Shown: positions 1-46,629, numbered from the stretch's first letter. The stretch is DNA of 64,000 nucleotides from an uncultured Planctomycetia bacterium (GCA_964650515.1 CAZYUB010000006.1:13858-77857); one strand, 5' to 3'. The notes: generated by a model not told the origin, from the letters alone. Numbers and translations are program-made.

Positions 1-1
1 G

Positions 2-244
2 CTTTTGACCCGTATACCGGCAAGCGGCGGCTGGGTCACCGCGCCGATGAATGCCACGCAATGCACCATCTCGCTGTGTTCATGGCATACGGGGTCCGCG
101 TGGATCGCCGCAAGTTTCGACGACTTACAGCTTATCGAGCAGGGTGCCACAGTCCTGGTCCCGCTAACGGATACGCCCGTTATAGAAGATGTCAGCATGA
201 CCTATCTGCCCAAGACACGGGTATTATACAGCAGGGAGTTTTAG
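2..244 (+). CDS. 3' end of an upstream gene that continues beyond the window. Its C-terminal tail is homologous to the tail of the 1325..4387 product.
   Basis: Open frame from the window edge to a stop at 242-244. The last ~25 aa (…TPVIEDVSMTYLPKTRVLYSREF) align with the C-terminus of the 1020-aa protein (…TPVLDDVTVTYMQEAQFLYRREF). Confidence 0.4.
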   Translation, partial: LLTRIPASGGWVTAPMNATQCTISLCSWHTGSAWIAASFDDLQLIEQGATVLVPLTDTPVIEDVSMTYLPKTRVLYSREF

Positions 245-246
245 GG

Positions 247-1323
247 ATGCTCATTATGGCCGGCAGGGTATTTGTTATCCTGGCCGGCCTTTTTTTTATT
301 TTCGAAGGCCGCGTGGCGGCCGACGAAGTGTATCTTAGGAACGGAAGGGTCCTGCAGGGCGAGATAGTCGAGGAGTACGACGGCGAGGTCGTCCTTAGGA
401 TGAAGCTCGGGAAGACGGTCGTTCCGAGGAAAGATATCGCATCGATAGAGAAGAAGGTACTGCCTGAGGATTTCTTCGAAACTCCGGATGATGCTCCCGC
501 CAAGGCCCCCGCCTCTGCTGATGAAAAAACGCGGGACAACAAAGTACCGTATGATTTCAAGGTGACCGCTTCATATGAGCCGCAGGGCGAAAGCGCGCGC
601 ATTACCGTGTCCGGCGAAGCGACCTTGCCCAACGGCGCGACGGTCGAGGTCTTGATAAAGAGGCGGGACAGGTTCATCGCGTCCGGCAGGACGAGCGTCT
701 TCGACAACAGGATATCGATGGATTTCAGGTTCTCGAAGAGGAGATTTTTCCCGGCCGTCTATACCGTTTCGGCGATATTCATGCCGGAACGCCAATCCCC
801 GGATGTAAAGAAGATACTGCAAAGCAATTTCGCGTTCGGCACGAAGGTAAAGACCGTAGAGGCCTCATGCGCCCTTTACGCCGGTAAGATCAAGGAGATA
901 ATCGAGGCGGAAGTCGATGCGAAGTGTGAGGTCGGCACCGCTATGGCGAAACTCGAGATGATGCAGTCGGAGCTTTCCGTAAAATTTGCGGCCGCGAAGA
1001 AGAGCTTCAACGCGAGGGATTGGGACAAATGGTCCTATACGTGGATGCTGTACATGAGGGGCATCCAGAAGAAACAGGACCCGCGGAATTCCTTCTTCCC
1101 TAAAGCGGATGAGGCCGTGGCAATGGCCGCCAATTCTTTGCTGAAGCTCTGGCAGTACTGCAACCTCGAGCTCAGGGATCCCGCCGCCTATAATAAGATA
1201 AAGAACGACCCGAAGACGAGGATAAGACCCGAGGACCTGAAGAAGCTGTTGGATAAGGGCCCGTTCAACGAGTTGCTGGATAACATAAGGAAAGAAGCGT
1301 CCATGCTGGAGATGTATAAATAA
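247..1323 (+). CDS. Hypothetical exported or membrane-anchored protein. The first in-frame ATG after the upstream gene is at 247; the track ORF extends back to 61.
   Basis: ORF 61..1323. A hydrophobic N-terminal segment (MLIMAGRVFVILAGLFFIF) follows the ATG at 247. The stop is 1 nt before the next gene. Confidence 0.5.
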   Translation: MLIMAGRVFVILAGLFFIFEGRVAADEVYLRNGRVLQGEIVEEYDGEVVLRMKLGKTVVPRKDIASIEKKVLPEDFFETPDDAPAKAPASADEKTRDNKVPYDFKVTASYEPQGESARITVSGEATLPNGATVEVLIKRRDRFIASGRTSVFDNRISMDFRFSKRRFFPAVYTVSAIFMPERQSPDVKKILQSNFAFGTKVKTVEASCALYAGKIKEIIEAEVDAKCEVGTAMAKLEMMQSELSVKFAAAKKSFNARDWDKWSYTWMLYMRGIQKKQDPRNSFFPKADEAVAMAANSLLKLWQYCNLELRDPAAYNKIKNDPKTRIRPEDLKKLLDKGPFNELLDNIRKEASMLEMYK

Positions 1324-1324
1324 A

Positions 1325-4300
1325 ATGCGCGCGAAAAAAGGCGTCGCGATACTCATAGCGCTCGGCGTGCTTACATTCCTGTCTTTTGTGGGGGTCTCAT
1401 TCACGATAGGGTCTATCATAAGCCTGAAGGCCGCATATAACCATTATTATGCCGCAAAAGCGAGGATGATGGCCGACGCCGGCATCGCCCACGCGTTATC
1501 CGAGCTCAGGTGCGGCGCCAGCGGGGCGACGACGGACGCCATAGATACAGCCGCTATGCCCTATAACGGCACGGTCGCCCTGGACAGGGGGCTCACCGGC
1601 GCCTACAATGCGGTTGCGGTCGATAGCGCGAGCCGCATCAACATCAATGATAATAACCCGAACCTCGCGCAGATACTCAAAAACCTCAGCAGGACTTCCA
1701 GCCCCGCCCTGCTTACCGACGCCGATTGCGATAATATAGCGGATAACCGCCCTTATTCCTGCAAGGAGGAGATAAAGCTGCAGATAAGCGGCGCTACGCA
1801 GCAGGAAAGGGAGGACAAGTATGCGGGTGTGGCCGATTACCTTACCGTATACGGGTATATAGACCCGTATACGGTAAACCCGGTCGATGTCACGTCGCCG
1901 TATGCCGTCCAGCCGAGGTCCCCGGTAAACGTTAATACCGCGAGCAAAGAGGTAATACAGGCGGTCCTTGCCGGGATCAGCGCGTCGCATGCATGCCCGA
2001 AATGCGGAGGCGACGGACAGATCAACGGGCCCTCCTCGAGCACCGCGTGCGACTCCTGCTCATCCGGCGCGTTATCGATAGACAGCACCGAAGCCGACCT
2101 GCTCGCGCAGTATATCGTATCCCACAGGCCTTATTCGAGCTGGAGCCAGTTCTACCTTTCCGTTAAGGCCTGCGGATCGATAGGGGCGAGGGACGCCGAC
2201 CTTGTCATGGCTAACGCCTGCCCGAATACGGGTTTTTCGTGGATACGCAATTATGGATGGGCGAGCAAGATGGGTTACCTCGGAAAATACCTTATCGACT
2301 GGAACAAGAACGGCGTGCCCGACGCGAGCGACAAGGGCCTTGCGGTATATACGACGGAGTTCAGTTTCAATTCCGGGGGTTACTATGAGATCGCTTCTTA
2401 CGGGGAGGTCAACCGTTCGGGCATACCGCTTGCCCGCAAGAATATCTTCACGGTCGTGAAGATCTACGACATATACAGGCTGACCAACCAGCAGCAGATG
2501 GAGGCATCGGGGTCTTCCAAGGCGGAAGTCACGACATATCCCGAGCCCGTCGAGGCGGATAGTTCGCCGCCGTCGGCCGCGGCATACGACGGCCAGGTAA
2601 TGCTCGCGAAGAAGACGACGGGCGGGCCGGACGCGTCCGGAGGCCCGGGATGGCTGAACGCGCCCTACAGGATATCGTTAAGCGCTATGGGTGCCGGCGG
2701 GAATAAGGACCCTGTAGACGTTACGGGGGACGGGACGAAGCCCAATGTTGAGAGCGTGGCCAATTTTTCCGACAGGGGAGAGCTGATGCCTGACGGCATG
2801 CTCGTCGACATGTTCGAAAAGGTAAGGGCGGCATACAAATCAGCCGGCAACCTGCTCGCGGGCAACGGCACGATGGAGATATGGTTCAAGACGCAGTGGA
2901 ACAGCTTTGATTCGAGGGTATACGGCGACACCGATATAGACAGGAAGATGTTCCGGCTGACGAGCGGCGACGCTATAGACGGTTTTACGGACCCGAACGG
3001 CGTGCCTTATATGACTCTTTTCATGTGGTCGGACGGCGGCGGGACATACGCGCGCGGGATGTGGGGCGGCGGGGCATGGAACTCTTCGGCTAATGCATGG
3101 GGATTTGCCGGGGCAGATTTTTACTGGGGCGATACCTGGTTCGGTTGGCCCTACGGCGGCGCGGGCTGGGGCCATTGGGACGCGGGCAAGTGGAACCATC
3201 TTGCCGTCACATGGATAAATCCCGCTCCTATAAAAGGCAATCCCGAGGGAACTTATACCTCAGAGGTCTGCCCGTTGCATATATACTTGAACGGCGAGAG
3301 CAGGCTAAATAACAACTCCGGACAGGCCGGCACCGACAACATGAACGTTTACTATTACCACACCGATTACCTGGACAAAGGGGACATCGATTACGATTTC
3401 ATGTGCGGCAACGAATACAGCAAGTGGAACACGAACTGGGGCACATTTGAGTTCTCTAACGCTGTCATCGGATCGGTATGGGTATGGAGCAGCCAGCGTT
3501 CGGATGCCCAGGTGATCGCGGACCTGAACAACGGCATTTATGCCGCGAACGGGACTTATGAAGCCCCGGTGATAGATATCGGCAAGGACGTCCATTGGGG
3601 CGCCATAACATGGACGCAGGCCATACCCGATGAGATAGCGGATGAAGGCGGCGGCATCACAATGTCCGTAGACACGACCGGCGCAAAGACGGCATGGACC
3701 GGCGGATGGACCGACCCGTCGGCCGGCCAGGCGATAGATGCCGTATCGGATAAGCTTGCGATAAAAGCGAAACTGACCGCGACCGGGACAGAGACGATCG
3801 AAGAGAAGGATAATGTCCTGTCCAACGGGAATTTTGAGACGGGAGGGCTCGGCGGATGGACGGTCGCGTTGGCAAGCGGCGCGGAAGCGAGCAGCGTCGC
3901 GCCGTACGAAGGGACGTACCACCTGCAGCACGGGAGGCGTTCAGGCACGGGGAGCGACAAGCTGGATACCGAGATATACCAGGAAGTGGCGTGCGTCAAG
4001 GGCGCGAAATACAGGTTCAGCGGGTGGTACTCGTGGTCTAATGACAACTGGAGCTGGCACGGCGATCTCGAGCTCAAATTTTACGATAGCAGCGGAAACC
4101 TCGTGTTGACGAGGTCGGACGCGACCTCGTCCGGGACCAATGTGGGCAGCGGTTATATATTCAAGGACCTGGGCTGGGTCGCCGCGCCGGTCAACGCCAC
4201 AAAGATACGCGCCGGGATCGGGGTTTACGGGAAATATATACCGACATGGAACAGGTGGGATGACCTGAAGCTCCAGCAGGCGGCGATCTCGACGACCGGC

Positions 4301-4387
4301 ACGCCCGCGCTCGAGACCCCCGTCCTCGATGATGTGACCGTAACATACATGCAGGAAGCGCAGTTCCTATACCGCCGCGAATTTTAA
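1325..4387 (+). CDS. GspK/PilX-like minor pseudopilin (1020 aa) with C-terminal lectin-like domains (LamG-like and CBM4/9-like).
   Basis: The N-terminus (MRAKKGVAILIALGVLTFLS) resembles a prepilin-like hydrophobic segment. VNVNTASKEVIQAVLAGIS matches the GspK NxNTAS motif. A Gly/Trp-rich region with WNHLAVTW looks LamG-like. NGNFETGGLGGWT is a CBM4/9-type signature. Confidence 0.6.
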   Translation: MRAKKGVAILIALGVLTFLSFVGVSFTIGSIISLKAAYNHYYAAKARMMADAGIAHALSELRCGASGATTDAIDTAAMPYNGTVALDRGLTGAYNAVAVDSASRININDNNPNLAQILKNLSRTSSPALLTDADCDNIADNRPYSCKEEIKLQISGATQQEREDKYAGVADYLTVYGYIDPYTVNPVDVTSPYAVQPRSPVNVNTASKEVIQAVLAGISASHACPKCGGDGQINGPSSSTACDSCSSGALSIDSTEADLLAQYIVSHRPYSSWSQFYLSVKACGSIGARDADLVMANACPNTGFSWIRNYGWASKMGYLGKYLIDWNKNGVPDASDKGLAVYTTEFSFNSGGYYEIASYGEVNRSGIPLARKNIFTVVKIYDIYRLTNQQQMEASGSSKAEVTTYPEPVEADSSPPSAAAYDGQVMLAKKTTGGPDASGGPGWLNAPYRISLSAMGAGGNKDPVDVTGDGTKPNVESVANFSDRGELMPDGMLVDMFEKVRAAYKSAGNLLAGNGTMEIWFKTQWNSFDSRVYGDTDIDRKMFRLTSGDAIDGFTDPNGVPYMTLFMWSDGGGTYARGMWGGGAWNSSANAWGFAGADFYWGDTWFGWPYGGAGWGHWDAGKWNHLAVTWINPAPIKGNPEGTYTSEVCPLHIYLNGESRLNNNSGQAGTDNMNVYYYHTDYLDKGDIDYDFMCGNEYSKWNTNWGTFEFSNAVIGSVWVWSSQRSDAQVIADLNNGIYAANGTYEAPVIDIGKDVHWGAITWTQAIPDEIADEGGGITMSVDTTGAKTAWTGGWTDPSAGQAIDAVSDKLAIKAKLTATGTETIEEKDNVLSNGNFETGGLGGWTVALASGAEASSVAPYEGTYHLQHGRRSGTGSDKLDTEIYQEVACVKGAKYRFSGWYSWSNDNWSWHGDLELKFYDSSGNLVLTRSDATSSGTNVGSGYIFKDLGWVAAPVNATKIRAGIGVYGKYIPTWNRWDDLKLQQAAISTTGTPALETPVLDDVTVTYMQEAQFLYRREF

Positions 4388-33592: not shown

Positions 33593-36500
33593 ATGCTAAG
33601 CCAAAATTGCAGTAAATATGTTATATCCATATCTATCGCGCTCGCGATATCATTCCCTTCGATATCGTGTTCCGGCGGCGAGGAGTTAGATTACAATAAA
33701 CTTTCGCTTGAAGCCGCGCTGAACATTATGTATGAGATAGACCCCGAAATACAGTCAAGTAAACTTGCCGTAGATTCCGCCCATCTCGAGATAAGGGCGA
33801 GGAAACTTGATACGTTCCTCCCGAAGATAAGCGCGGGCGCCACGCTTGTAAAACCGGTAAACGTCTTCTCCTCGCTTGAGCAGCAAAAGGAGATGTTCTT
33901 TGAGCAGCAGCTCGTAATAGAATTCGCCGTTACTTCTGACAGCCTGAAACAAATTGCCAGGGAAAGGAAGAATTACGAAACAAGCATGCTCGAGCTGAAA
34001 CAGGACATATCTATCAAGAGCCGCAGGCTGATCGCCGTATATTACGCGGTCGCCAGGGCGCAGGAAAACTACAGGTCAAGCTGCGATAATGTCGAGACGA
34101 TCGAGAAATATTTAAAGGAAGTGGAGAACAGCAATGAATATTCGGAAGTGGAGAAGTTCGAACTGAAGAACTATCTCGGGGTAGTGATCGAGGAAAAATT
34201 GGGGGCGTTGAACACGCTTATCAATACGAGAAGGGACCTTCGCGGGCTTCTCGGGCTTGAGGACAGGGAAGACATCATAATAACGGTCGAGGAACTCCCG
34301 GATAACATAAACAAGGACGCGGCTTTTGCGGAAAACCCGTTCATCAGGCCGGTAGACTATACGATGGACATATACAAGAAAAGGGAGGAAGCGGCTGGCA
34401 TCGCCGCTCGTATCAGCGCGTCGCCCCTGTTGGGGCTTTCGTCCTCGACTATCTTCGGAATAGGCGAAGGTAAAGGGACGAAGTTCCAGAAGAAGGCGAT
34501 AACGGATACCCAGGTGGAATTATTCTTAACCGACTTCGGCTATACCGCGGGGTTGAATAATGCCGGAAGGATCGGGTCGCAGATAGCCCGGCTCGAGCTG
34601 CTGAAGGCCGAGGAGGACCTGGAATACGCGGACCGCATAACGAGCGATAAGCTCTCCGAGCTGAGCGCGCTTATAGATAATTACAGGGATTATATAACCA
34701 AGACCGAAGATACTTTCAGGATGTTCAAGGAGCGGCTGTCCCTGCCTGTTATCGAGATAATAAGGATGAACGATAACATATATAAAGCGAGGTACGCGCT
34801 GCAGCAGGCGCTCGTTGATTATACGGTCATGCTGTCCAAGCTTAACGGTGTCGAATTGAAGCCGGAGCAGTCGAGCCCGCAGTACCAGGATATGGGCCTT
34901 GAGGACCTTTTGGCAAGGGGAGAGAGGAGCGATATCCTTACCGCAAAGCGGGTAGCCGAAAATAAGCTCAGGATGGAGAACGTCAGGGTCAAGGCCATGA
35001 AGGCGGGATACCTGCCGAAGATAACCGGGGCCGCGGTGCTTGAGAACGCCAATATAGACGGCACGCCGTACACGAACACGAGGGCTTATCTCGCGCTCGA
35101 AGCCCGCCTTTTTAACGGTAAGACCGGCCAGGCAGTGAAGGCGGCAAAGGCAGGCGCGGAGGCGGCGGGATACGAGGGGGCCGCGTTACAGAACTATGTC
35201 GCGGACGAGATAATAAGGAATTACCTGGCGATATTAAGGAACAAGAACACCTTAAAGAGACTGGAAGAGATAAAGGAGATAAAGGCCGGCATTGTCGGGC
35301 GCATGATGGAGGAGGCGCAGGGCGTAAACCCGAAATACAGCAATTCGGACATACTCCCTCTTGTCCTCCAGCAGATGGAGCTCGACAGGGTCATGGCGGA
35401 TGTGGAGTTCTCGCTGGCGGTGGTCGAATACGACCTGAAGAGATGGACAGGCATACCGCTCAACGAAAATATAAGCGTGAAGGAGCTGCCGGGTTTCGGG
35501 ACAGACGAAGGCCTCTCGAAGTTCAAGGCGCTCATCAGCTCCAGGGTGGCGCCGTATTTCGACGGCAAGGCCCCGGTCAAACAGGCCTTCAGCGCGGTCG
35601 AGAAGAACAGGGCCGGGGAGGCGCAGGCCGTCGCGTACGAAGGCGCGCTCTTAAATGTGAAATACGAGACGAAGGGGGCGGATTATTACGGATGGAAGAA
35701 CCCGGACAAGCAGTTGTCTTTCAGCGTCTCCGTGCCGTGGGGCGACCGCCGGGAGCGGCTGGCACAGTCGGACGCTTCAAGGGCGCGCATCAGGTCCGAG
35801 ATAGAGTATATAAAAAGCATGGATGAGTATGAAAAGGAAAGGCTGGCCGTAAAGACCGCTTATGACGCTTCGAAGGAGCTTATCGAGAACCTGCGCAGCA
35901 AGATGGAGAACATGGAGTCGCAGTACCGCATAACGGACGAGCTTTACAGGTTCGGCGGCAGGACGCAGAGGCAGATGGTCGACGCGAAGCTGGATTATAC
36001 CGTGGCCTGCATGAGCTATGAGGAAGCGGTCCTTGACAACTATTACCATAACGCGAGGGAGATACTGATTGTAGAGAAGGACGCGGGGCCCGAAGGCGGC
36101 GAGAAGATACTTCTGTCAGGGCTGCAGGAAGCGATAGACATGGCGCTGGAGAACAGCCGGCAGGTCAGGAAATACGAAGAGTTGCTCGAACTGGAGAAGG
36201 AGACGCTCAAGTACTACAAGACGTTCAGGGTGAAAGGTGACATTATCGAGAAGTACTACAGGATAGACAATAAGGGTTGGGAAAAACAGAAGGACCTGCT
36301 TACGACAGGTGCCGTAACGACCGTTGAAGCGGACCTTGTGAATAAATTTATGAGCAAGAGGCAGCAGCGAAGGATCGAACTGGCGGAAAAGGACGTGGTC
36401 CAGGCGAAGTTCGACCTTACCCTGAAGGTCGCGGACGCGTATTCCGATTACCTCGGCTCCCTGGCCGAAGCGTCTGAAGTCGAGGCGGAATATGAAAAGC

Positions 36501-37408
36501 AGAAGACGGTCCTCGCGGAGATGGAAGAGCTGTTCAGGGCAAAGGCGATAGCGCATGTCGACCTCTTAAAGCAGAGGGAGTTCGTCGAGAGCATGTATCA
36601 GAAATATATAGACATCAACAGGTATACCGAAGGATACAGGAACAACCTCGGTATAGCGGTCGGAGGCCTCGATCCGCGGTTCTCGATAGTGAATACCGAG
36701 GTCTACGACAAGTCCGCCAAACGAGTCGCCCTTACCGGGGATTTTGAGATTAAGCAGAGGTTATTGGACGAGCTGACCGCGGCGAGGCAGTCGCTGCAGG
36801 GTCCGTTGACGGACGACCTGCTGGAACGCGCGGAAATCGATATAAGCATGGCCAGGCTCGATACCGAAGCCATATCAAAACAGATCAAGACGCTTGCGAT
36901 AAACCTCGAGTATAATTACCTTACCGATTATATGGGATTATTGACCAAGGATGAGGCCGCTTTCTCGCGTTATGATAACATGTCGGAATTTATCTCGCTG
37001 AACTCGATGGACAAGATATTTGATCCCGTGACCGGCACGAAAGCGAGAGTCGCCGCAATAAAGGAGAAGGTGGCGGCGTTGAGGTCTAAATCATACACGA
37101 AGGACGTGGTCCAGGACGCGTTGAGGAGGTTTACAGATTACCAGATAGCCGTTGCCGACTACGGGAACTACGAAAAGCACGAGTCGGCGCTGGAAAAAGA
37201 GATGTCAGAGAAGATGCGTATAGAAGAGGCGGCCGGAGAGACGGCCCTGATCAGGCAAAGGGAGCTGAAAGAGACGGTGCTTAACAACAAGATCAATAAG
37301 ATACAGGCGTTCTACCGCATGATGAAATTTATGAACGAGCTTGACCGTTATCTGATAAGATATACGTCAAAGGGGATAGAATCATACGTAACGTTCACGG
37401 ATAAATGA
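33593..37408 (+). CDS. Giant TolC-like outer-membrane efflux lipoprotein (1271 aa, internally duplicated OEP-like modules).
   Basis: Lipoprotein-type signal (…SFPSISCSG). An OEP N-terminal signature LSLEAALNIMYEIDPEIQ, and a second one at LSGLQEAIDMALENSRQVRK (~36110). Extended coiled-coil content. Confidence 0.6.
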   Translation: MLSQNCSKYVISISIALAISFPSISCSGGEELDYNKLSLEAALNIMYEIDPEIQSSKLAVDSAHLEIRARKLDTFLPKISAGATLVKPVNVFSSLEQQKEMFFEQQLVIEFAVTSDSLKQIARERKNYETSMLELKQDISIKSRRLIAVYYAVARAQENYRSSCDNVETIEKYLKEVENSNEYSEVEKFELKNYLGVVIEEKLGALNTLINTRRDLRGLLGLEDREDIIITVEELPDNINKDAAFAENPFIRPVDYTMDIYKKREEAAGIAARISASPLLGLSSSTIFGIGEGKGTKFQKKAITDTQVELFLTDFGYTAGLNNAGRIGSQIARLELLKAEEDLEYADRITSDKLSELSALIDNYRDYITKTEDTFRMFKERLSLPVIEIIRMNDNIYKARYALQQALVDYTVMLSKLNGVELKPEQSSPQYQDMGLEDLLARGERSDILTAKRVAENKLRMENVRVKAMKAGYLPKITGAAVLENANIDGTPYTNTRAYLALEARLFNGKTGQAVKAAKAGAEAAGYEGAALQNYVADEIIRNYLAILRNKNTLKRLEEIKEIKAGIVGRMMEEAQGVNPKYSNSDILPLVLQQMELDRVMADVEFSLAVVEYDLKRWTGIPLNENISVKELPGFGTDEGLSKFKALISSRVAPYFDGKAPVKQAFSAVEKNRAGEAQAVAYEGALLNVKYETKGADYYGWKNPDKQLSFSVSVPWGDRRERLAQSDASRARIRSEIEYIKSMDEYEKERLAVKTAYDASKELIENLRSKMENMESQYRITDELYRFGGRTQRQMVDAKLDYTVACMSYEEAVLDNYYHNAREILIVEKDAGPEGGEKILLSGLQEAIDMALENSRQVRKYEELLELEKETLKYYKTFRVKGDIIEKYYRIDNKGWEKQKDLLTTGAVTTVEADLVNKFMSKRQQRRIELAEKDVVQAKFDLTLKVADAYSDYLGSLAEASEVEAEYEKQKTVLAEMEELFRAKAIAHVDLLKQREFVESMYQKYIDINRYTEGYRNNLGIAVGGLDPRFSIVNTEVYDKSAKRVALTGDFEIKQRLLDELTAARQSLQGPLTDDLLERAEIDISMARLDTEAISKQIKTLAINLEYNYLTDYMGLLTKDEAAFSRYDNMSEFISLNSMDKIFDPVTGTKARVAAIKEKVAALRSKSYTKDVVQDALRRFTDYQIAVADYGNYEKHESALEKEMSEKMRIEEAAGETALIRQRELKETVLNNKINKIQAFYRMMKFMNELDRYLIRYTSKGIESYVTFTDK

Positions 37409-40400
37409 GCGGGGACATGTTAATAAGAGCAAGAAAGATATTTGTCATACTCATAGCGGCGGCGGCCGTCCTTTTCACGGCGCGTTCATGTGTGCGCCGT
37501 CTCCCGGATGCGGATGACGCAGCCGGCAAGCAGCGGCCCGCTGCAGCCGATGCCGCGCGCGCCGGGAACCCTCTCGACCATCCGGCGCAGAGAGATACCG
37601 CGATAAACGCGGGTGAGCTCGTATCCTTCATCCTGGAATGGTCGAACCCTGAGACCGGCCTCGTCCCGACAATGATATCGAAGAGCGGCACGAAGAACCC
37701 TTTCGCGGACATGACCTACTCTTACGCGCAGGCGGTCGCCCACCAGAATCTCTTGATGGCCGGGCAAACGGACATTTCCTTGAAAGCCGCGGAAGTGTTA
37801 AGGCAGAGAGGCGAGGCGCGCGACATCCCGAACGGGCTTAATACGCGCACCGGGTTAAGCGAGGACCCCCTGATAACAGCCGGGCCGAACGCGTACTGGG
37901 GCATAAGTTTCATCAGGGAGTACAGGTTGGCAGGCGACGAGAAGTGGCTGGTTGCAGCTAAGCGGCGCGCGGATTTCCTGCTGAAACTGCAGGCGGATAA
38001 CGGCGGCATACGCAAGAGCCCTTACCAGGGCAATATAGAATACGAGGCGAAATCCACCGAGGAGAACCTCGATTGTTACGCGCTGTTCGACCTGCTGTCG
38101 CAGCTCACGGGTGAGGAGAAGTACGCCACGGCAAGATCAAGGATACTCGGCTGGCTCTCCGCGAGCGGTGTGTACAACAAGGATGCGGGGTATTTTACGG
38201 CCGGCACATCCAAGGACGCCGTGAATCCCATTTATGCTACCGACGCGAACGCGCTCGCAATAATCATACTCGGCCCTGAGCTGCTCGATTCCGAAGGCGA
38301 GGTCCGGTTCGGCGGGGCCGGAACAAGCCGCAGGATATTGGACAGCCTTGATGCGGCCAGGGTGAAAGTGGATTATCTCCACCCGTCCGGCATCACTGTA
38401 AAAGACCTAGAAGGGTTCGATTTTACCGATAAGCTCGGCAGGCCCGGCAGGAAACCCGTCCTGAGCCCCGAGTTCACTTCCCAGGCGGTGCTGGCATATC
38501 TGGTGATGGCGAGGCATGCGAAAGAAAAAGGCGATGTCGAATATTCGGCCAAGCTTATAGAAGACGCGCGCCGTTATCTCGATAACCTCGGAAGGATGGC
38601 AGCGCGCACAGGGAAGTCGGCGTCCCTGCCTTATGCCTCGGAGAAAGGGATAAGGCGTTATCCCTTCGACAACTGGCTGACGCCTCAGGGAGACGCGGAT
38701 ATATCGGCGACATGGGCGTCGTTCCCGCTGTCGGGGTTCAACCCGTTTGCGCTTGAAGGGTTCGGGCTGCGAGATGCGATGAAGGATTCCGCGGAATGGA
38801 TGTCCGATACAGGCGAAGCCATAAAGCCGGAAAAATCTTTTGTTGTCCCCGAACCGGAGAAGATCGTGTCGGAAGCCGAGCTCATCGCCCAGCAGGAAGC
38901 GGCAAGGGAAGAGGCGATGAGGAAGCCGATCGTGTATTATAAGGTCCTTTACGACCAGGTCAATAAGGACGCGACTATCGCGAGAAGGAGGGTGATAGCC
39001 GTCCTGATGACAAGCTACAATTGCTGGTTCGACGGCGTGCTGGATACGGCGTCGCGGGACTATGACGTGATCGGCGTCGACGGAAATTACAAGGTCTTCT
39101 ATAAGAGATTCCAGGACCTTCCCGAAGCTACGAGGAAGGCCGTGCAATCGGAATATTCCTATCTTGACGAGTCTACGGGTATCAAATGGAGGATGGCCCC
39201 TAAGTACAATTTGAGCCTCGACGGGCAGTATAAGCCGTATTACGCCTTCGAGATGGACGGCGATTACAACATAATCAGGCAGTTCGCGTCCGAGAGCGAC
39301 GTCCCTGAAGAGAACAGGGCCGACCTGAAGAACGTAAAAGCCCAGTTCCAGTCCTCCAGCGGCCTTCCCGAAGGCCACCTCATAGCGAGGTATTTCACCG
39401 CGCTCGAGGTGGACAGCGAGATGAATATAATGGACTATTACGAAGCGATAGACGACCTTCCGGGCCTCGTCTCCAAAGTCCCGATTAGCGAAGATGAGTT
39501 CAGGAGGTATACCAAGGCGAAGGACTGGGAGAGGCAGGACCTGGTCTCCGCCGGCATCATCCCCGATGAAAAAGGCCTGCTTGCCGTCCAGGAGAGAGGC
39601 ATATATTATGCAAAGGTCCTCGGCCTCGATGAGACAAGGAGGCTGCGCGTAGGCGGCGTCTCCGTAGCCAGCGGACGCGAGATAATCATGGGAACCAGGT
39701 TCAGCCTGACGAACTGGCGCATCGGGGAGGCATCGAAGACGAACGCCGTCAAATATGAAATAGGGCTCATAAAGGGCATGGTCATAAAGCCGCGCGAACA
39801 GTTCAGCGGAAGCGGCCCATCGCCGACACAGCCGCTTTGGATATACCTCGGGGAAGACATGATCGCCTCAGAGACCGCGGAATTCAAGAGGAGGCTCCTG
39901 GACCTGCTGAAGCGCATCAAATCGGAGAAGGACGCGCAGACGCGCCTAGAGCTCGTGGAACAATACGACCGGCTGGCCGGAGAGCTCGCCTGGTACGACG
40001 AGAACGGGCTCATTCATGTCATCTATTACGGCGCAAAAGCCGCCGAGAAGAGGTTCGGGGATTTCGCATCTGCGAAGGCAAGGGCGGAGAACAGCCTGAG
40101 GACCTACGAATCGATCCTGGGCAGGGACCAGCTCGGGCGGGACCTGCGCGATTCATACGGGCGCGTCTGGCTTAAGGTAATAAACGAGGCGACCGGCCGC
40201 ATATTATACGTCGAAGTCTATGATATGGCGGGAAACCTCGAGACGATATATTCCGGGGAGATCGATATCGACCCGCTCACTAAAGAGGTCAGGTCCGAAA
40301 TAAGGACCGACCTCGAATACGACAAGGATACCCTGCAGGTCGTCGGCAGCCACACATACCGCACCGATGAGAACGGGGACTGGGTCTCCGACATATCCGA

Positions 40401-43400
40401 GAGCATATTCAAGGGGTATACGCCCGACAAGAAGTATTTCGTTTCGGAGGTGCATATATTCGAGAGGGGCGAGGACGGCAGGATAATATTCGAGGACGGG
40501 AAAGCCAGGTATACGAAGAAGATAGAATATTACACGCCGGAAGGCGATATATCGGCCCAGATGGTGAAGAACATAATAACTATAGTCAGGTACGGCGCCA
40601 ACCGTGAGGTCGTGAAAGAGGTCTTCCTCGAGCGGCCGGGCAAGACCCTGACAGGGGAGAACACGGACCTCGATAACCTGACGCAGGGCCTTGCGTGGGT
40701 CCGCAGGTACAAGACGACAGGCAAGATATTGACCTTCAAGGACGCGCTCGTGAAGTCCCTGACATCGCTGCCCGAAGAAGACAGGGAAACGACCGCGTTG
40801 CTGATATTGAACAGGCTCGGCGCGGAGAAGGTAGGCAGGATCAGCGATACGCTTATGCTGGAAGAGAACGAGGTCACGAACAACCTTACCGGCGACCCGG
40901 CCGCGCCCGGAGAGGCGCCCTATTTCGTGTTCTACGAACCGGGCGACAGTTTGGGCCGGCAAAGGCTCATAGTGCGCGGCGGCACGATGGAGGTCCCCGT
41001 CGACTGGATACCCGAGGCCGATATACCTTCGAAGACGCTCACGTTCAACCTTGCCGGCGAGCTGGTCTCGATAAGCGACGTCGACAGCTCTGTCCGAGCG
41101 GATTCAGTACTGCCTCCCGGATACATAGAGAGGGTGGCGCCGCTCGGCATCAACGCCGATACGTTGCTGCCCCAGATGAAGAAGAGGATATTCAGGATGG
41201 TGACCGGCGATGACGGCCTGCCGCATTTCACGAATACGGTGGCCATTACGACGGTCAGCTACATGATACCCGACGACGTGCTCGGCAGGGAGCTCCTGAA
41301 CGTCAAGTTCGTCATGCTCGGGGACGAGACGACGCTCCACAACGGCAGCACGCTTAAGCTCAAGCGCAATATATTCGGCAAGGACACGCTTATCGAGTCG
41401 TGGAAGGACGAGAGGGGCGAGGCCCGCACCCGGGCAATAGCTAAGAAAGAGGATACCGTAGTATATGAATGGTATAAGGAGGGCCTCGACGCCGGCGAGC
41501 TGCGCGAGCGCCTGAAGTCCGAATGCGGCAAGCTCGTGAAACGCGAAATACTGGAGGAGGCGCTCGTGAACGTCGCGGAGTCGCCGTTCGGCACGATGCC
41601 GGGCTACCACGTGATAAAGCCGAACGGGCGTATAGGCGAGATCAAGTATTTCTCCGGCACCGTCGAATACCCGCGCAGCGTCTTCAGCCATGCCGGGGTA
41701 AAGGTGCCTTATGAATCGGAAGCGCCGCCGTTCAAGCTCCCGGACGGGCCCGCGATAAGAGGAGTGAAATACGGCGTGTTGAACTCAGATTACGCGTTCT
41801 ACGACGTGCATTCGCTCAGCGGTCAGCTGATAGTACTCGAACGCCGTTTCATAATCCTGCGCCTCATGAACATACTGCCGGTGCAGGGCGGCAGGCAGAC
41901 GGAATATTATGACCCGCTCGTCCCGTATTCATACCTGAGGCCGATAAAGATAGAAAGGGATTTCAGGCCCGGCACTCAACCCGAGGGCACGCAGCCGGGC
42001 ACCCAGATCGTCGCGGTCTTCATCGGCGACGCGAGCATCTACCATCGTAACGGGTGGCAGACCCAGACGTTCCTCGAGAGGAGGCCGTTCGATATAGAGC
42101 ACTGGATACGCTCTGATTACGAGTTCGACGATAACGGCGTATATAAGTTCAAGAAAGAGCATATCGAAAGCAGCTCGATATACCTTATGAGGTCTATCGA
42201 ATGGCAGAAGCCGCTCGCGTTCTTCGCGCTTGTGGCAGGACTCTTCTTCCTTGCCGGCTATGTCTCGCGCAGGAGGCTTAGGGCCGGAAGGGAATCCAGG
42301 ATCAACGCCGCATGCGCGGCCTCAAGGCCGTTCAGCAGGGAAATGCTCGCGCGGCTCTCAGTGCCCGAAGAGCTGAAAGCCGCATGCATAAAGGTATATG
42401 AAGGGCGTGAGCCGGCATCGGGGCTCTTCGCCGCATCCGAAAAGGTCTTCAGGCCAAGGATCGAGGAATGCCTGCGCGGTTTCGGGGCCGACCCGGCCGA
42501 GCATACGGCGAGCGTTAACGTCCTGCTGGACAGGATCGCGTGCCGTCTCGGCAGGGAGGAGATAAATTTAAGCAACCTGTTTGCGGCCGAAGCGAAAGAG
42601 TTCGTGGAATGGTCGAAGAGGAACGGTCATTCCGTCAGCATCGCCGCGGGCAAGACCGGAACGGATGACCTGTCGTTAATAGTCCTGTTCAGGCTTGTAT
42701 TCGACGAGTCGATGGAATTCAGGGCAGCCGTTACCGGCTTCAGGTATTATCTCTTCGATAAGTCGCTCGTCCTGCTCGCCGCGGGCAGGAAAGGCGATAT
42801 ACTGCGCGAGATACGCGGCGATACTCTCGCTTTCCTCGAGGCACTGAGGCCCGGTTATGACAAGAAACTGGGGCTAATAAAGGAATATATTTTTACATAT
42901 GACGACATGAACGAGCTTTTTGAGGGCAAGAGGCCCGGGTTCATCGCCTCATTTGCCCGGCTGGAGGGAAAGACCGCCGCGCAGAAACTCTCCTGGCTCG
43001 CGTCGAAGGCGGGCAAGGATGCCGCCGCCGACGTGATGTCATATAAGAGCTACGCATGGCTTAAGACGTTCCCCGATAAGGCCGGCGTCCCGCAGTTCGT
43101 CTCAAACCTTAGGCGTTTCTGGGGATTCCTCGTGCCTATGTTCGCGGCCGTGACTTTGGGCGGTGTCGCTATAGCGCTGAAACGCATACCGTTCGCCCAA
43201 CGCCTCGAAGGCGCGATGGGACCTGTAGGGGCCGCATTCGTCGAGGTAACGGCCCTAATACTCATAGGCCTTGTCATAACAATGGCTTTCATGAAAGGCA
43301 CCTTAGGCGATTACAAGCCGGCGCCGAAGGGCGCGGCAGGGAATAAGGAGCTCAGGCGGTCGATACGGCTGTTCTGGATAATGTACGGCTCGGCCTCTTA

Positions 43401-46400
43401 CCTCTGGGGCCTCTTCAGCATATTCGTGATAATCTGGACCGTCAGGATCATAAGCAAGCTCACGTTCGTGAACGCCGGATGGGGCCTGTTCATCAACGCG
43501 AGCGCGCTGCTGCTTACGTTCACGTTCATACTGTCGAGCTTCTTCTCGCTCTTCTATATCATAATAGCGTTGATAGGGTTCTACCGCGGCAAGAGGGAAG
43601 GCGTAGGCCAGGTCATATCATGGATCCAGATGAGGAGGAAGTTCGAGGCCTCAAAGCGTCGTTTTGGGCAGGTCATCGCGCCGGCCGAAACGCTATGGAG
43701 GTCATATTGGAATCTGATGATAAAAGAGCTTTACGATTATTATGTCATCAGCGCTCCGGAGAGGGATGCCCTCTCGTATTCCGAGAAAAATACAGCGCCG
43801 AAACTCGAGGGGCTACCGCGCGCAGATGAGGCCTCCGAAAGGATGCGCCTCTATGTCAACAGCTGGCTCATGGAGATGCCGAAGGCGTGCTCCTGGAACG
43901 ACCTGCCGACGTTCACTGCGATGGTGACGGCGTTCAATGAACCGGTCAGCTTCTCGTTCGATGAGCTCAACGGCTGCGACAGGGGCGCCGAAGTCACGAG
44001 GCTCAACCACCTGATCGGGTTCTACAGGCCGCAGTGGGAAGAGTTCGTCGGCCGGCTCGATACCGCCGACCTCGGGCAGTATATCACGAGGGAGCAACTG
44101 AAGCTGCTCTTCGGCCTGAAGAAACTGCCCGAAGGGTTGCCGGAACAGCTGAAGGAGAAGATCAGGAAATGGGCAAACCTCACGGTCCAGTGCGTCGAGA
44201 AAACGGCCGTGGAGGTATACAGGATACGCGATGCCTTTGCCGCCTATGCCGGGGCGTGCTATCCCGGCGCGTCCGCCGCGGACATAGAGGAGCTCGTATC
44301 CCGCAAGGTCCAGATACTGCTTAATTACGAGGGGTTCCACAGCCCTGCGACCCGCGATTACGACAGGGAGTCCCTGAAGAGGCTCATGAAAGAGCTTCCG
44401 CGGTTGGATGTCTATTGGGCGGCGGCAGAGGGCGACGATAAGGGCCTCGACCGCGGGCTCCACCGCTATAACCCGGCGACGGACGGCATCGAGCTTATAG
44501 AGACCGCGCCGTTCACCGCTACGGTAAAGAAAGGCAAGCCGAGCGGCCTGAACCAGGCGCTGCCGTTCGTGAAGGGCGAGACGGTCCTCTTCTTCGACGC
44601 GAACTGCTCGGTCAGGATAGAGGATGCCCTGAAACTTCCCGTCGCGCTTTCCGAGTTCGCGGACGACCCGTCGCTCGGAGAGGTCCTGTTCGCCGAGTAC
44701 ATATTCAACAAGAACTATTCATGGATCTCGCAGGCGATAGGTTTCAACGAGGAGACATTCGTCTCGGTAACGCAGAGGACGTTGAATATCTTCCAGGCCT
44801 GCGGTTTTTACGGCCACAGCGCGATAATAAAGACGGACATGATCACCGCGGCCTGCGGCCTGCCGCAGGATTATATATCCGAGGATATACTGCTGGCCAC
44901 GGCATTGTGGAAGAAGGGGCTGAAGACCTCGCATAAGGAATACCTGACTTTCGGCAAGGGCAGGGAGACATCGTATTTTACGAGTTTAGTGCCGCTGACG
45001 AAATGGGCAATGGGCTCCTCCGACGCCGCGATAGGCCGCGTCATGCGCGGCATACTCGACTCGCGGAATATCCATGTCGCGCAGAAGTTCATGCTGATGT
45101 TCGGGTTCTCGTTCTTCTACCAGACCCCGCTGATGTTCGTGATAAATTTCCTTTACCTGTGGCTTATGATCTGCTGGGGCATAAACGGTTTCATGGCGGT
45201 CCCGTACCCGATCGTCTTCGGCATCCTCGGCCTGCTCTTCAACCAGGCGATAACAGCTACCGGCGTCGCGTATCTCGTGGAGCATTACGGCTTCAGGAGG
45301 TCCTTCTCCGCATACATGAAGCTTGTCGCGAAGAACCACTTCTTCTACGCGTCGGTCATACCCGCGTACGCGTTCGGTTTCCTCGCGGGCCTGAAGGGAA
45401 AGGCGGTCTTCATCATAAGCCCGAAGGGATGGAACCTCGGCCACCTGCCCCTGAAAGTAATATGGGGGGAGAAGAGGGCAATACTGAAGGCGGCATTATT
45501 CAGCACGATGGTGGGCCTCCCGCTTGCGTACCTGCTTGTGTCGGCCGAGATGGTCCCTTTATGGATAAGCCCGTTCATACCGTTCCTGCCGTTCGCCGTC
45601 GTGGCGGCGATGTACGCGGCGGGCCTCGAATGGAAAAAGACGGGCTTGGGTTTCCTGAAGGACTGGCGCGACGAGATCGTCCCCGACGGGGATATCCGCA
45701 AGATGTCCGTGATAAAACTGCAGATGATCTACGCGATGGTGCTGCTCGTCTTCACAGGGGTCGGCTTCGTCATGTGGGGCCTCATATTCTCGTCGCTGGC
45801 GGTCAAGGCGCTGTTCATATTCTCGGTCCTTTATATAAGCACGACGATGTCGTTCATAATAATGCCGCTCTTTGCGCATTCCCAGCCGGTCGCGCTGTTC
45901 AAGGAGATAACGATATCGAAGTTCTGGAATTATGCGGCGATACCGGCGCTGTTCGCGAGCATCGTTTTCGGCGCTGCCTCTATCTTATCGAGCCCGGCTA
46001 CGGCTTCGCCCGAATCGGTCGTCTATACGCTTCTCGGCATATCGTTGCTTGTCGGATGGGCGCTGCTTAAATGGAAACTCAGCGGGTACGCGAGGCTTGA
46101 CAGGTGGCTAAAGCAGAACCTGGCCGGGTACGCCGGCGCGCCCGCGTACCGTAAAGCAGACCTGATGGATGACGTATACTTCGCGCACCAGGAGCTGATA
46201 CAGGGCGACAGGCAGGAGGAGTTGAGATATAAAAGGAAAGCCGGGAAGGCCAAGGCGGTGTTCGTGTTCACGCTGTCTGCCGCGCTGCTGATGTATTTCG
46301 CGTCGGAATTCTACCCGAGGTTATTCAGAAACTGGATATGGCTCCTGATAGCGGCCGAGGCGGTCTATTTGCTGATACTCAACGTCGAGCACACGAAAGA

Positions 46401-46629
46401 CGACAGGATATACCTCGGCAAGCTCTACGGCGGGATAATTATAAATGACTTCAACAGGCTCAACGAAAATGTCAGGGCCATGGAAGATATCTGGAAGAAA
46501 CTGGACAGGGTATACAAGGCCAGGCTCGTCAGGATCTACGAGGACGAATTAAGGGCCAAGAGGGCGATGACCGTTTACATGTCCAGGTGCATCAGGTCTT
46601 GGGAGGCGGGGCAGCAGAGGCCTACCTAG
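37405..46629 (+). CDS. Giant (3074 aa) multi-domain membrane polysaccharide synthase-like protein. It combines an N-terminal (alpha/alpha)6 glycosidase-like domain, a long central region, and a C-terminal polytopic GT2-type processive glycosyltransferase core.
   Basis: The start overlaps the TolC-like stop (ATGA). GT2 motifs: KPSGLNQALPFVKGETVLFFDAN (K-G-LN-AL…FDAD-like, ~44533), ISEDILLATALWKKGLK (TED-like, ~44876), and LTKWAMG (degenerate QxxRW, ~44995). Over 20 predicted TM helices flank the core. Confidence 0.6.
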   Translation: MSGDMLIRARKIFVILIAAAAVLFTARSCVRRLPDADDAAGKQRPAAADAARAGNPLDHPAQRDTAINAGELVSFILEWSNPETGLVPTMISKSGTKNPFADMTYSYAQAVAHQNLLMAGQTDISLKAAEVLRQRGEARDIPNGLNTRTGLSEDPLITAGPNAYWGISFIREYRLAGDEKWLVAAKRRADFLLKLQADNGGIRKSPYQGNIEYEAKSTEENLDCYALFDLLSQLTGEEKYATARSRILGWLSASGVYNKDAGYFTAGTSKDAVNPIYATDANALAIIILGPELLDSEGEVRFGGAGTSRRILDSLDAARVKVDYLHPSGITVKDLEGFDFTDKLGRPGRKPVLSPEFTSQAVLAYLVMARHAKEKGDVEYSAKLIEDARRYLDNLGRMAARTGKSASLPYASEKGIRRYPFDNWLTPQGDADISATWASFPLSGFNPFALEGFGLRDAMKDSAEWMSDTGEAIKPEKSFVVPEPEKIVSEAELIAQQEAAREEAMRKPIVYYKVLYDQVNKDATIARRRVIAVLMTSYNCWFDGVLDTASRDYDVIGVDGNYKVFYKRFQDLPEATRKAVQSEYSYLDESTGIKWRMAPKYNLSLDGQYKPYYAFEMDGDYNIIRQFASESDVPEENRADLKNVKAQFQSSSGLPEGHLIARYFTALEVDSEMNIMDYYEAIDDLPGLVSKVPISEDEFRRYTKAKDWERQDLVSAGIIPDEKGLLAVQERGIYYAKVLGLDETRRLRVGGVSVASGREIIMGTRFSLTNWRIGEASKTNAVKYEIGLIKGMVIKPREQFSGSGPSPTQPLWIYLGEDMIASETAEFKRRLLDLLKRIKSEKDAQTRLELVEQYDRLAGELAWYDENGLIHVIYYGAKAAEKRFGDFASAKARAENSLRTYESILGRDQLGRDLRDSYGRVWLKVINEATGRILYVEVYDMAGNLETIYSGEIDIDPLTKEVRSEIRTDLEYDKDTLQVVGSHTYRTDENGDWVSDISESIFKGYTPDKKYFVSEVHIFERGEDGRIIFEDGKARYTKKIEYYTPEGDISAQMVKNIITIVRYGANREVVKEVFLERPGKTLTGENTDLDNLTQGLAWVRRYKTTGKILTFKDALVKSLTSLPEEDRETTALLILNRLGAEKVGRISDTLMLEENEVTNNLTGDPAAPGEAPYFVFYEPGDSLGRQRLIVRGGTMEVPVDWIPEADIPSKTLTFNLAGELVSISDVDSSVRADSVLPPGYIERVAPLGINADTLLPQMKKRIFRMVTGDDGLPHFTNTVAITTVSYMIPDDVLGRELLNVKFVMLGDETTLHNGSTLKLKRNIFGKDTLIESWKDERGEARTRAIAKKEDTVVYEWYKEGLDAGELRERLKSECGKLVKREILEEALVNVAESPFGTMPGYHVIKPNGRIGEIKYFSGTVEYPRSVFSHAGVKVPYESEAPPFKLPDGPAIRGVKYGVLNSDYAFYDVHSLSGQLIVLERRFIILRLMNILPVQGGRQTEYYDPLVPYSYLRPIKIERDFRPGTQPEGTQPGTQIVAVFIGDASIYHRNGWQTQTFLERRPFDIEHWIRSDYEFDDNGVYKFKKEHIESSSIYLMRSIEWQKPLAFFALVAGLFFLAGYVSRRRLRAGRESRINAACAASRPFSREMLARLSVPEELKAACIKVYEGREPASGLFAASEKVFRPRIEECLRGFGADPAEHTASVNVLLDRIACRLGREEINLSNLFAAEAKEFVEWSKRNGHSVSIAAGKTGTDDLSLIVLFRLVFDESMEFRAAVTGFRYYLFDKSLVLLAAGRKGDILREIRGDTLAFLEALRPGYDKKLGLIKEYIFTYDDMNELFEGKRPGFIASFARLEGKTAAQKLSWLASKAGKDAAADVMSYKSYAWLKTFPDKAGVPQFVSNLRRFWGFLVPMFAAVTLGGVAIALKRIPFAQRLEGAMGPVGAAFVEVTALILIGLVITMAFMKGTLGDYKPAPKGAAGNKELRRSIRLFWIMYGSASYLWGLFSIFVIIWTVRIISKLTFVNAGWGLFINASALLLTFTFILSSFFSLFYIIIALIGFYRGKREGVGQVISWIQMRRKFEASKRRFGQVIAPAETLWRSYWNLMIKELYDYYVISAPERDALSYSEKNTAPKLEGLPRADEASERMRLYVNSWLMEMPKACSWNDLPTFTAMVTAFNEPVSFSFDELNGCDRGAEVTRLNHLIGFYRPQWEEFVGRLDTADLGQYITREQLKLLFGLKKLPEGLPEQLKEKIRKWANLTVQCVEKTAVEVYRIRDAFAAYAGACYPGASAADIEELVSRKVQILLNYEGFHSPATRDYDRESLKRLMKELPRLDVYWAAAEGDDKGLDRGLHRYNPATDGIELIETAPFTATVKKGKPSGLNQALPFVKGETVLFFDANCSVRIEDALKLPVALSEFADDPSLGEVLFAEYIFNKNYSWISQAIGFNEETFVSVTQRTLNIFQACGFYGHSAIIKTDMITAACGLPQDYISEDILLATALWKKGLKTSHKEYLTFGKGRETSYFTSLVPLTKWAMGSSDAAIGRVMRGILDSRNIHVAQKFMLMFGFSFFYQTPLMFVINFLYLWLMICWGINGFMAVPYPIVFGILGLLFNQAITATGVAYLVEHYGFRRSFSAYMKLVAKNHFFYASVIPAYAFGFLAGLKGKAVFIISPKGWNLGHLPLKVIWGEKRAILKAALFSTMVGLPLAYLLVSAEMVPLWISPFIPFLPFAVVAAMYAAGLEWKKTGLGFLKDWRDEIVPDGDIRKMSVIKLQMIYAMVLLVFTGVGFVMWGLIFSSLAVKALFIFSVLYISTTMSFIIMPLFAHSQPVALFKEITISKFWNYAAIPALFASIVFGAASILSSPATASPESVVYTLLGISLLVGWALLKWKLSGYARLDRWLKQNLAGYAGAPAYRKADLMDDVYFAHQELIQGDRQEELRYKRKAGKAKAVFVFTLSAALLMYFASEFYPRLFRNWIWLLIAAEAVYLLILNVEHTKDDRIYLGKLYGGIIINDFNRLNENVRAMEDIWKKLDRVYKARLVRIYEDELRAKRAMTVYMSRCIRSWEAGQQRPT

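Follow-up and report, generated by a model that had tools for sequence, protein, structure and literature searches.

K-type minor pilins are recognised by the lack of a glutamate at position +5. In the GspH-I-J-K tip complex of type II secretion systems (T2SS) and type IV pili (T4P) it is such a minor (pseudo)pilin – GspK, XcpX or PilK (PilX) – that forms the cap (PDB 3CI0 and 5VTM). In the PilC/PilY1 system a short strand at the extreme C-terminus of the large tip adhesin, the 'plug', β-augments PilK at its terminal strand and stabilises it; PilC can be bypassed by fusing the plug to PilK (Denic et al. 2026 preprint, 10.64898/2026.09.18.752573). PilB and PilC of Streptococcus sanguinis represent another arrangement, in which the pilin module is followed by C-terminal ligand-binding modules, with a predicted location at the pilus tip (PMC8179133, PMC9934059). 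Here we analyse a 64,000-nucleotide stretch of DNA ('the window') from an uncultured Planctomycetia bacterium (GCA_964650515.1 CAZYUB010000006.1:13858-77857), at the start of which two neighbouring open reading frames (ORFs) share a conserved C-terminal tail. Both encoded proteins are giant GspK/PilK-like minor (pseudo)pilins, and the tail is a structural element of these presumed tip pilins, not a secretion or anchoring tag. We consider it probable that the two tails are homologous C-terminal β-hairpins of tandem paralogs, with the second strand of each hairpin located at an inter-domain interface, most plausibly with the K-type pilin module (K module).

The shared motif reported in the initial annotation is present in both translations: the ORFs end in TPV[LI][ED]DV[ST].TY…LY.REF (window positions 170-241 and 4310-4384), and a six-frame regular-expression scan of the whole window found exactly these two tails. 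The upstream ORF (frame +2, 2-244) runs off the start of the window and has the C-terminus LTDTPVIEDVSMTYLPKTRVLYSREF, directly followed by the stop codon; the ORF at 1325-4387 (+ strand) encodes 1020 amino acids (aa) and similarly terminates with LETPVLDDVTVTYMQEAQFLYRREF. When compared by BLASTP, the 80 visible residues of the cut ORF align with the 1020-aa protein over 76 residues (28/76 identical, E=4e-12): the alignment reaches beyond the 25-aa tail to take in the end of a CBM4/9-like domain, and the similarity is far above chance. The C-terminus of a 1038-aa protein, P0017, is identical to all 80 residues, and the cut ORF is the end of this full-length paralog (hereafter K-A) of the 1020-aa protein (P0001, hereafter K-B). 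P0017 and P0001 are collinear from the N-terminal signal to the last residue, and 38% (BLAST) or 43% (MAFFT alignment) identical; the description of the two as otherwise different proteins therefore has to be dropped. That the tail marks a family of paralogs, the alternative considered in the initial annotation, is borne out, as the upstream gene is a full-length paralog and the complete tail-bearing proteins are all GspK-like except for two non-pilin proteins that carry the first strand only (see below). The features of the locus, in window coordinates, are:

2-244, + strand: 3′ end of K-A, 80 codons and the stop, with the last part of the CBM-like insert and the tail DTPVIEDVSMTYLPKTRVLYSREF (170-241); identified through the P0017 C-terminus
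247-1323, + strand: 358-aa signal-peptide accessory protein, between the two pilin genes
1325-4387, + strand: K-B (P0001), giant GspK-like minor (pseudo)pilin, 1020 aa
1325-2509, + strand: GspK/PilK-like pilin module of K-B, aa 1-395 (NCBIfam, Pfam, AlphaFold2 (AF2) secondary structure, PDB sequence match)
2381-2482, + strand: β-strands that end the K module, aa 353-386, where the last strand of the tail may dock (AF2 strands 353-364, 367-379 and 382-386; mutual information with average product correction, MI-APC, not robust under permutation)
2762-3544, + strand: LamG/ConA-like jelly-roll region, ~aa 480-740 (Pfam Laminin_G_3 on homologs and P0031; β-rich in AF2)
3545-3802, + strand: first six strands of the C-terminal β-sandwich (~105 aa), aa 741-826
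3803-4282, + strand: CBM4/9-like module, aa 827-986, in the loop before the last sandwich strand (Pfam, Foldseek, alignment A7)
4316-4351, + strand: tail strand 1, TPVLDDVTVTYM, aa 998-1009, closing strand of the sandwich (AF2 strand 1000-1009; strand 85-95 of the isolated-domain model; non-pilin copies)
4358-4384, + strand: tail strand 2, AQFLYRREF, aa 1012-1020, proposed inter-domain 'plug' (AF2 strand 1013-1019; none in P0094 and P0110)

The N-terminal 395 residues of K-B comprise the N-terminus MRAKKG/VAILIAL, an α1 helix (5-63), a helical insert with the helix-hairpin-helix (HhH) motif QPRSPVNVNTAS and the strands at 353-386. Both N-termini – MRAKKG/VAILIALGVLTF… in K-B and MIKKG/VAIVFALGVL… in P0017 – are prepilin-like signals that lead into a hydrophobic α1 helix without Glu at +5, the signature of the K type, and in the orthologous syntenic loci as well as in many loci with a single K-type giant the gene follows GspH/I/J-like genes. 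NCBIfam T2SS_GspK (NF037980) aligns with aa 5-223 of K-B (E=6e-8, 32.6 bits against a cut-off of 130) and with P0017 (E=1e-9), and Pfam T2SSK (PF03934) matches the HhH motif at aa 201-223 (18.6 bits against a cut-off of 24.2); precomputed PF03934 matches exist on several homologs. Among PDB sequences, XcpX/GspK 5VTM matches the family profile best, at two collinear motifs (E=0.07). A profile built from 67 diverse members reaches 453-aa canonical GspK-like proteins with Pfam T2SSK_1st and T2SSK, and otherwise adds almost no new members because the candidates for this search had been picked by shared words. The family thus resembles GspK/XcpX/PilK in its hydrophobic helix without Glu5, in the predicted order of HhH helical insert (P.N.NTAs..vL) and C-terminal β-strands, in gene position and in family-model matches that are weak but collinear. 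It differs in being two to seven times larger (~650-2200 aa), in adding LamG or PA14 modules, the β-sandwich, sometimes a CBM, and the conserved terminal hairpin, in having up to three paralogs per operon, in its sub-cut-off scores and in a DnaJ-like CxxCxGxG insert. This insert, at aa 224-248 of K-B (window ~1994-2068, + strand), is a DnaJ-type zinc-finger-like sequence, CPKCGGDG…CDSCSSG, with CxxCxGxG occurring twice; it interrupts the helical part of the module, is kept in the family consensus and weakly matches the DnaJ zinc-finger domain 2CTT (E=0.68). Such a motif is unusual in an exported pilin.

In the full-length AF2 model of K-B (pLDDT 81, pTM 0.75, from a shallow alignment of 30 sequences) helix 5-63 is followed by a β-hairpin, the helical insert, strands 337-386 that end the K module, a β-rich LamG-like region, a sandwich at 742-825, the CBM at 830-985 and finally two tail strands, 1000-1009 and 1013-1019, with pLDDT of ~90. 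The protein accordingly has the layout of a modular pilin: a class III signal and a pilin module onto which a LamG-like region, the sandwich and a CBM4/9-like module are grafted C-terminally. Strand 1 of the tail is the final strand of the ~105-aa sandwich, and the CBM is an insert in that sandwich. Alignment A7 of the C-terminal regions makes this arrangement apparent: short members have a compact domain of ~105 aa without a CBM, while in both window paralogs a CBM of ~165 aa lies in the loop between strand I.Y+A.F and TPVLEDVTITY. Since the sandwich is interrupted by the CBM in both window proteins, it is strand 1 that closes it after the insert. The CBM itself is recognised by Pfam CBM_4_9 (aa 830-908 of K-B, E=1.2e-5), and CBM16/22/61 matches dominate a Foldseek search of the full model against PDB, which is uninformative on the tail.

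For the isolated domain, a second AF2 model covers the C-terminal 105 aa of the family member P0009 (pLDDT 84, shallow alignment of 21 sequences). It has seven strands, of which VLEDVTITYLP (residues 85-95) is the last; the chain then ends in ten residues of coil, RTQLLYWRGY, over which pLDDT drops to 77 and then to 66. Taken together, the two models suggest that strand 2 needs the rest of the protein to become ordered. A Foldseek search with the isolated sandwich returns only generic jelly-rolls with E values of at least 0.016, among them the PNGase C-terminal domain, GOLD and the furin P-domain.

The separate standing of the two strands is also seen in two non-pilin proteins matched by the tail profile, P0094 (1297 aa, with a Sec signal) and P0110 (1382 aa, with DUF2341, BACON, Ig and dockerin domains). 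Each carries two copies, mostly internal, of a ~100-aa unit …W.T..WT…I.F..RT…W…RYIQY.A.LST…TP[VI]L.DVTI.Y (aa 873-969 and 1201-1297 of P0094; aa ~385-477 and ~685-776 of P0110). The P0094 unit matches the family sandwich with 97% probability in hhalign (E=1e-10), and for the P0110 unit the match is at the final strand (E=7e-5). After …DVTI.Y there follows either a linker or the end of the protein, and no …ILYWRE… strand: strand 2 ([IV]L[Y][WY][RK][ED]…) is restricted to the pilin-borne copies of the sandwich. In P0094 and P0110 the sandwich is a repeated domain following ConA/LamG-like modules, and no Pfam model covers it.

The tail is a constant feature of the family. Homology search with K-B yielded 35 proteins (759-1765 aa), nearly all from metagenome-assembled genomes (MAGs) of Omnitrophota, and all 35 terminate in the motif, with TP located 21-25 residues before the end. 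In a 32-sequence alignment the last 25 residues (3.1 bits per column) are among the three best-conserved segments, and the CBM region is the least conserved. When a 48-column tail profile was run against 1.84e9 cluster representatives (50% identity), 202 clusters were recovered at E<=1e-3 and 27 at E<=1e-10, with TP again 21-25 residues from the end in 160 of 173 tails; against an indexed database of 5.8 billion proteins the profile found only 8 short contig-end fragments. The initial annotation had named as counter-evidence to its reading a lack of further tail carriers together with an upstream gene that is just a close paralog: the upstream gene is indeed a paralog, but carriers of the tail are not lacking, with at least these 202 clusters. 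We then ran HMMs of the individual regions of the protein on all the retrieved proteins. The GspK-like module is present in 106 of the 110 tail-bearing proteins of at least 600 aa, the sandwich in 75, a LamG match in 54 and a CBM in 17. A further 68 shorter tail matches are without the N-terminal module, and mostly look like contig-end fragments. The 80 loci collected from genomes and metagenomes give the same picture: module and tail occur together in 87 ORFs, and only seven ORFs have a tail alone, five of which run off the contig end. The remaining two come from fragmented-looking loci, one with an assembly gap (L023) and one in which the gene is broken up into several ORFs and a short run is masked (L044). 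ORFs with a module only are mostly 3′-truncated or have divergent yet recognisable tails. The hairpin offers a compact and searchable signature of the family, for which neither Pfam nor NCBIfam has a model.

The loci belong to Omnitrophota and to some Auribacterota and Planctomycetota MAGs. Several members (proteins P0007 and P0008; loci L009, L012, L014 and others) are labelled 'Dehalococcoidales bacterium' or 'uncultured Planctomycetia/Actinomycetota' in NCBI and are nevertheless 65-69% identical to Omnitrophota proteins; the non-Omnitrophota labels on such members are probably binning or taxonomy noise.

What does strand 2 contact? Three consecutive conserved residues, L-Y-W/Y, imply that both of its faces are packed, and we infer that it is placed at an interface between domains. 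Its most likely partner is the GspK module, since no further part of the architecture is invariant. We examined covariation in 96 full-length sequences and, as a repeat, in 119 non-redundant and independently realigned ones. By MI-APC, the best 20-25-column partner window of strand 2 is in both alignments 353-386, the terminal strands of the K module, and the best partner of 353-386 is, in reverse, the tail; for strand 1, taken as a control, the best coupling is to the sandwich at 742-784. The 356-386 window was kept in 19 of 25 bootstraps, and in the other six the partner was a different part of the K module. In mean-field direct coupling analysis (mfDCA), no pair of the matrix scores higher than 62-1012, which connects the end of α1 with the turn of the tail. 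Pair 62-378 is among the ten strongest; 1006-1017 agrees with the hairpin, and 780-1004 with the place of strand 1 in the sandwich.

These observations are consistent with strand 2 packing back on the K module and stabilising it, which would make it the cis equivalent of PilC/PilY1's C-terminal plug. In its most specific form – the giants as natural fusions of a PilY1-like tip adhesin with a K-type pilin, in which the last strand (…ILYWRE…) is a cis plug that β-augments the protein's own K module, closes a ring and stabilises the tip – we put this proposal forward as tentative, and with somewhat more doubt than conviction. The parallels are that the PilC/PilY1 plug, too, is a short strand that forms the very C-terminus of a large tip protein, that its partner is the terminal β-strand of a K-type minor pilin, and that it is unstructured without that partner, as strand 2 is coil in the isolated-domain model (10.64898/2026.09.18.752573). 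The engineered PilK-plug fusion is functional, and the giants would be its evolutionary counterpart; as adhesin modules and K pilin form one polypeptide here, docking would be in cis. There are also differences: the motif described here is strongly conserved, whereas little sequence conservation is reported for PilY1 plugs (10.64898/2026.09.18.752573), and, unlike the PilC/PilY1 plug, strand 2 forms a hairpin with the preceding sandwich strand. The PilY1 β-propeller (IPR008707 / PF05567) has no Pfam match on the window protein or the called genes of the syntenic operons. If the last strand does dock on the pilin module, the plug principle would extend to a cis arrangement and to uncultivated phyla, and stabilisation of K pilins by a plug would reach beyond PilY1-bearing type IVa pili (T4aP).

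Several points weigh against this interpretation. A global shuffle of the tail rows retains about half of the MI-APC statistic, and with shuffles confined to clades 4-7 of 40 trials attain the observed value, which puts the signal at clade level; correcting the mutual information by permutation shifts the top window to α1 residues 20-50, with z<=2.4 against the within-clade null. Covariation evidence for the partner of strand 2 is, therefore, suggestive and not robust. The full-length and isolated-domain models that differ in the order of strand 2 are of different proteins (P0001 and P0009) and come from shallow alignments (30 and 21 sequences), and we infer the partner rather than observe it as model contacts or in the predicted aligned error. 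The scores of both GspK family HMMs (NF037980 and PF03934) are under the curated cut-offs. As to function, the predicted tip location and lectin activity derive from homology and domain content only, and no pilus machinery for these pilins was identified, the window containing just a PilT-like ATPase.

The hairpin could also be conserved with no contact to the pilin module at all: both strands may belong to the sandwich and be conserved to close the domain around its insert, with no plug role for strand 2. Strand 1 is demonstrably the last sandwich strand, the 1006-1017 mfDCA pair fits a plain hairpin, and the K-module covariation is not significant against the within-clade nulls. We nonetheless regard this as unlikely, given that strand 2 is coil (pLDDT 66-77) in the isolated-domain model and missing from the non-pilin copies of the sandwich, that the consecutive L-Y-W implies packing of both strand faces, and that the tail is equally conserved in short members without the CBM insert and in long ones. 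Strand 2 could alternatively enter another subunit, by β-augmentation or by an exchange resembling that of donor strands, and so assemble or order the tip complex; the candidate partners are another K paralog, a GspI/J-like pilin and the adjacent ~350-aa accessory protein. The PilC/PilY1 plug does work in trans, the terminal strand is disordered in the isolated domain, and three tail-bearing paralogs per operon are interleaved with conserved accessory proteins. Docking in trans is nevertheless improbable in our view: the strand is already ordered, with pLDDT ~90, in the monomeric full-length model, many loci have a single K-type giant and no accessory gene, and no accessory gene follows the last paralog, the 1020-aa protein.

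Finally, the initial annotation favoured a sorting, secretion or anchoring tag, to be read by a dedicated enzyme or translocon. The strict C-terminal position, 21-25 residues from the end, and the strong conservation would suit such a signal, as would the LPxT that follows TY in 42 of 173 tails; known C-terminal sorting signals (LPXTG, PEP-CTERM, the C-terminal domain (CTD) of type IX secretion (T9SS) and the β-signal of outer-membrane proteins (OMP)) are alike in position and conservation. The tail, however, has no G after LPxT (LPxTG in 0/173) and no transmembrane helix with a basic cluster: only 10-14 residues follow TY in the 173 tails, the longest hydrophobic run is <=5, no basic tail is conserved, and there is no conserved terminal aromatic residue, the last position being E in 81/173 and F in 14/173. 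Sorting-domain models of NCBIfam and Pfam (Por_Secre_tail, PEP-CTERM and similar) have no match at E<=0.1 on the window protein. The processing enzyme expected to co-occur with a tag did not turn up, as no sortase, exosortase, rhombosortase or T9SS component was found among the scanned window ORFs or in the syntenic operons. Portable tags sit on unrelated proteins, whereas this tail is found on no complete protein outside one GspK-like superfamily, and its first strand is internal in other proteins. We reject the individual candidates accordingly: a sortase LPXTG signal on the absence of LPxTG, transmembrane stretch and basic tail; a PEP-CTERM or GlyGly-CTERM-type signal on the absence of a transmembrane helix, an NCBIfam match or an enzyme within the scopes just given; a T9SS CTD on the lack of a model match and the merely generic jelly-roll likeness of the sandwich; and an OMP β-signal on the variable last residue and the absence of a barrel in the AF2 prediction. 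A sorting function of any kind is extremely unlikely, and the tail should not be labelled as a sorting signal; the N-terminal, GspK-type prepilin-like signal accounts for sorting instead.

Since the window is cut upstream of K-A, we read the gene order from orthologous loci (L001, L002, L004 and L005; 69-74% identity). These start with three small prepilin-type genes with the canonical G/FTLIE (GspH-like, a GspI-sized one of 123 aa and GspJ-like), followed by a PA14 protein of ~950 aa, two proteins of ~340-400 aa, the P0017 ortholog, a ~355-aa protein and the P0001 ortholog, after which come EF-G, YebC and RuvCAB in the same order as in the window, where they begin at 4485. The PA14 protein, encoded directly 3′ of the GspH/I/J-like genes (L001 4871-7720, L004 820-3795), has a pilin-like N-terminus and the C-terminus …TPVLEDITVTFLPKVEVEYWREGQ; the operon therefore encodes three tail-bearing paralogs (K1 with PA14, K2 and K3), which are alternative K-type giants. 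Elsewhere 2-4 small prepilin genes directly precede a single K-type giant, and in several genomes additional copies lie at other loci (JBAZJG01 and CAZAEH01, four each). The 358-aa accessory protein encoded between K-A and K-B has an N-terminal segment of ~50 aa (ADEVYLRNGRVLQGEIVEE…) that matches NCBIfam Lepto_7_Nterm (E=3e-8) as well as PTPDL-family models, and is helical or unassigned beyond it; K-type giants are followed in many loci by its paralogs of ~330-450 aa, and this points to a dedicated partner or chaperone of the giants.

Judged by homology and domain content, the most likely place of the giants is a type IV pilus or pseudopilus tip, on the GspH/I/J-like complex, where they would display the lectin-type modules LamG, PA14 and CBM4/9. 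Omnitrophota, Auribacterota and Planctomycetota are taken as diderm, and the giants are a diderm, K-type counterpart of the S. sanguinis modular pilins. PilC of S. sanguinis shares a ConA/LamG-like lectin module with the giants; PilB and PilC, in contrast, belong to a monoderm T4P, are not of the K type and have no conserved terminal hairpin. Modular K-type minor pilins are thus a variant of known pilin modularity, and their tail marks a large unannotated family. Another large protein (~1300 aa) encoded beside prepilin-type genes in a phylum of the Planctomycetes-Verrucomicrobia-Chlamydiae (PVC) group is the Verru_Chthon cassette protein A (TIGR02600): this model has a weak N-terminal match on the distant member P0035 (E=1e-4, 20 bits against a cut-off of 332) and no match on the window proteins.

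Omnitrophota are ultra-small, probably host-dependent bacteria, and we know of no description so far of Omnitrophota pilus-tip proteins that touch the host or substrate; a literature search for Omnitrophota and pseudopilin had no match. T4aP are nearly universal in this phylum, where they are thought to mediate host attachment and are the most widespread predicted attachment device (PMC10066038). The family described here provides candidates for the tip proteins: K-type pilins with LamG, PA14 or CBM lectin modules, present as alternative paralogs within an operon.

Some further features of these loci deserve mention. The ~3 kb upstream of the GspH-like gene in L001 (positions 1-3170) contain no ORF of at least 135 aa on either strand, and may be non-coding or encode an RNA gene. 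Besides the pilins, the sole pilus-machinery gene seen in the window encodes a T2SSE-family ATPase of 373 aa (56154-57275, + strand; Pfam E=7.5e-102), the size of a PilT-type retraction ATPase. Lastly, a 1271-aa protein with outer-membrane efflux protein (OEP) repeats (33593-37408, + strand) is translationally coupled to a giant of 3074 aa (37405-46629, + strand) with a 1,3-β-glucan-synthase-like domain (PF02364, E=1e-23), GT2 and a GH76-like region; the two may form a pair for exopolysaccharide synthesis and export.

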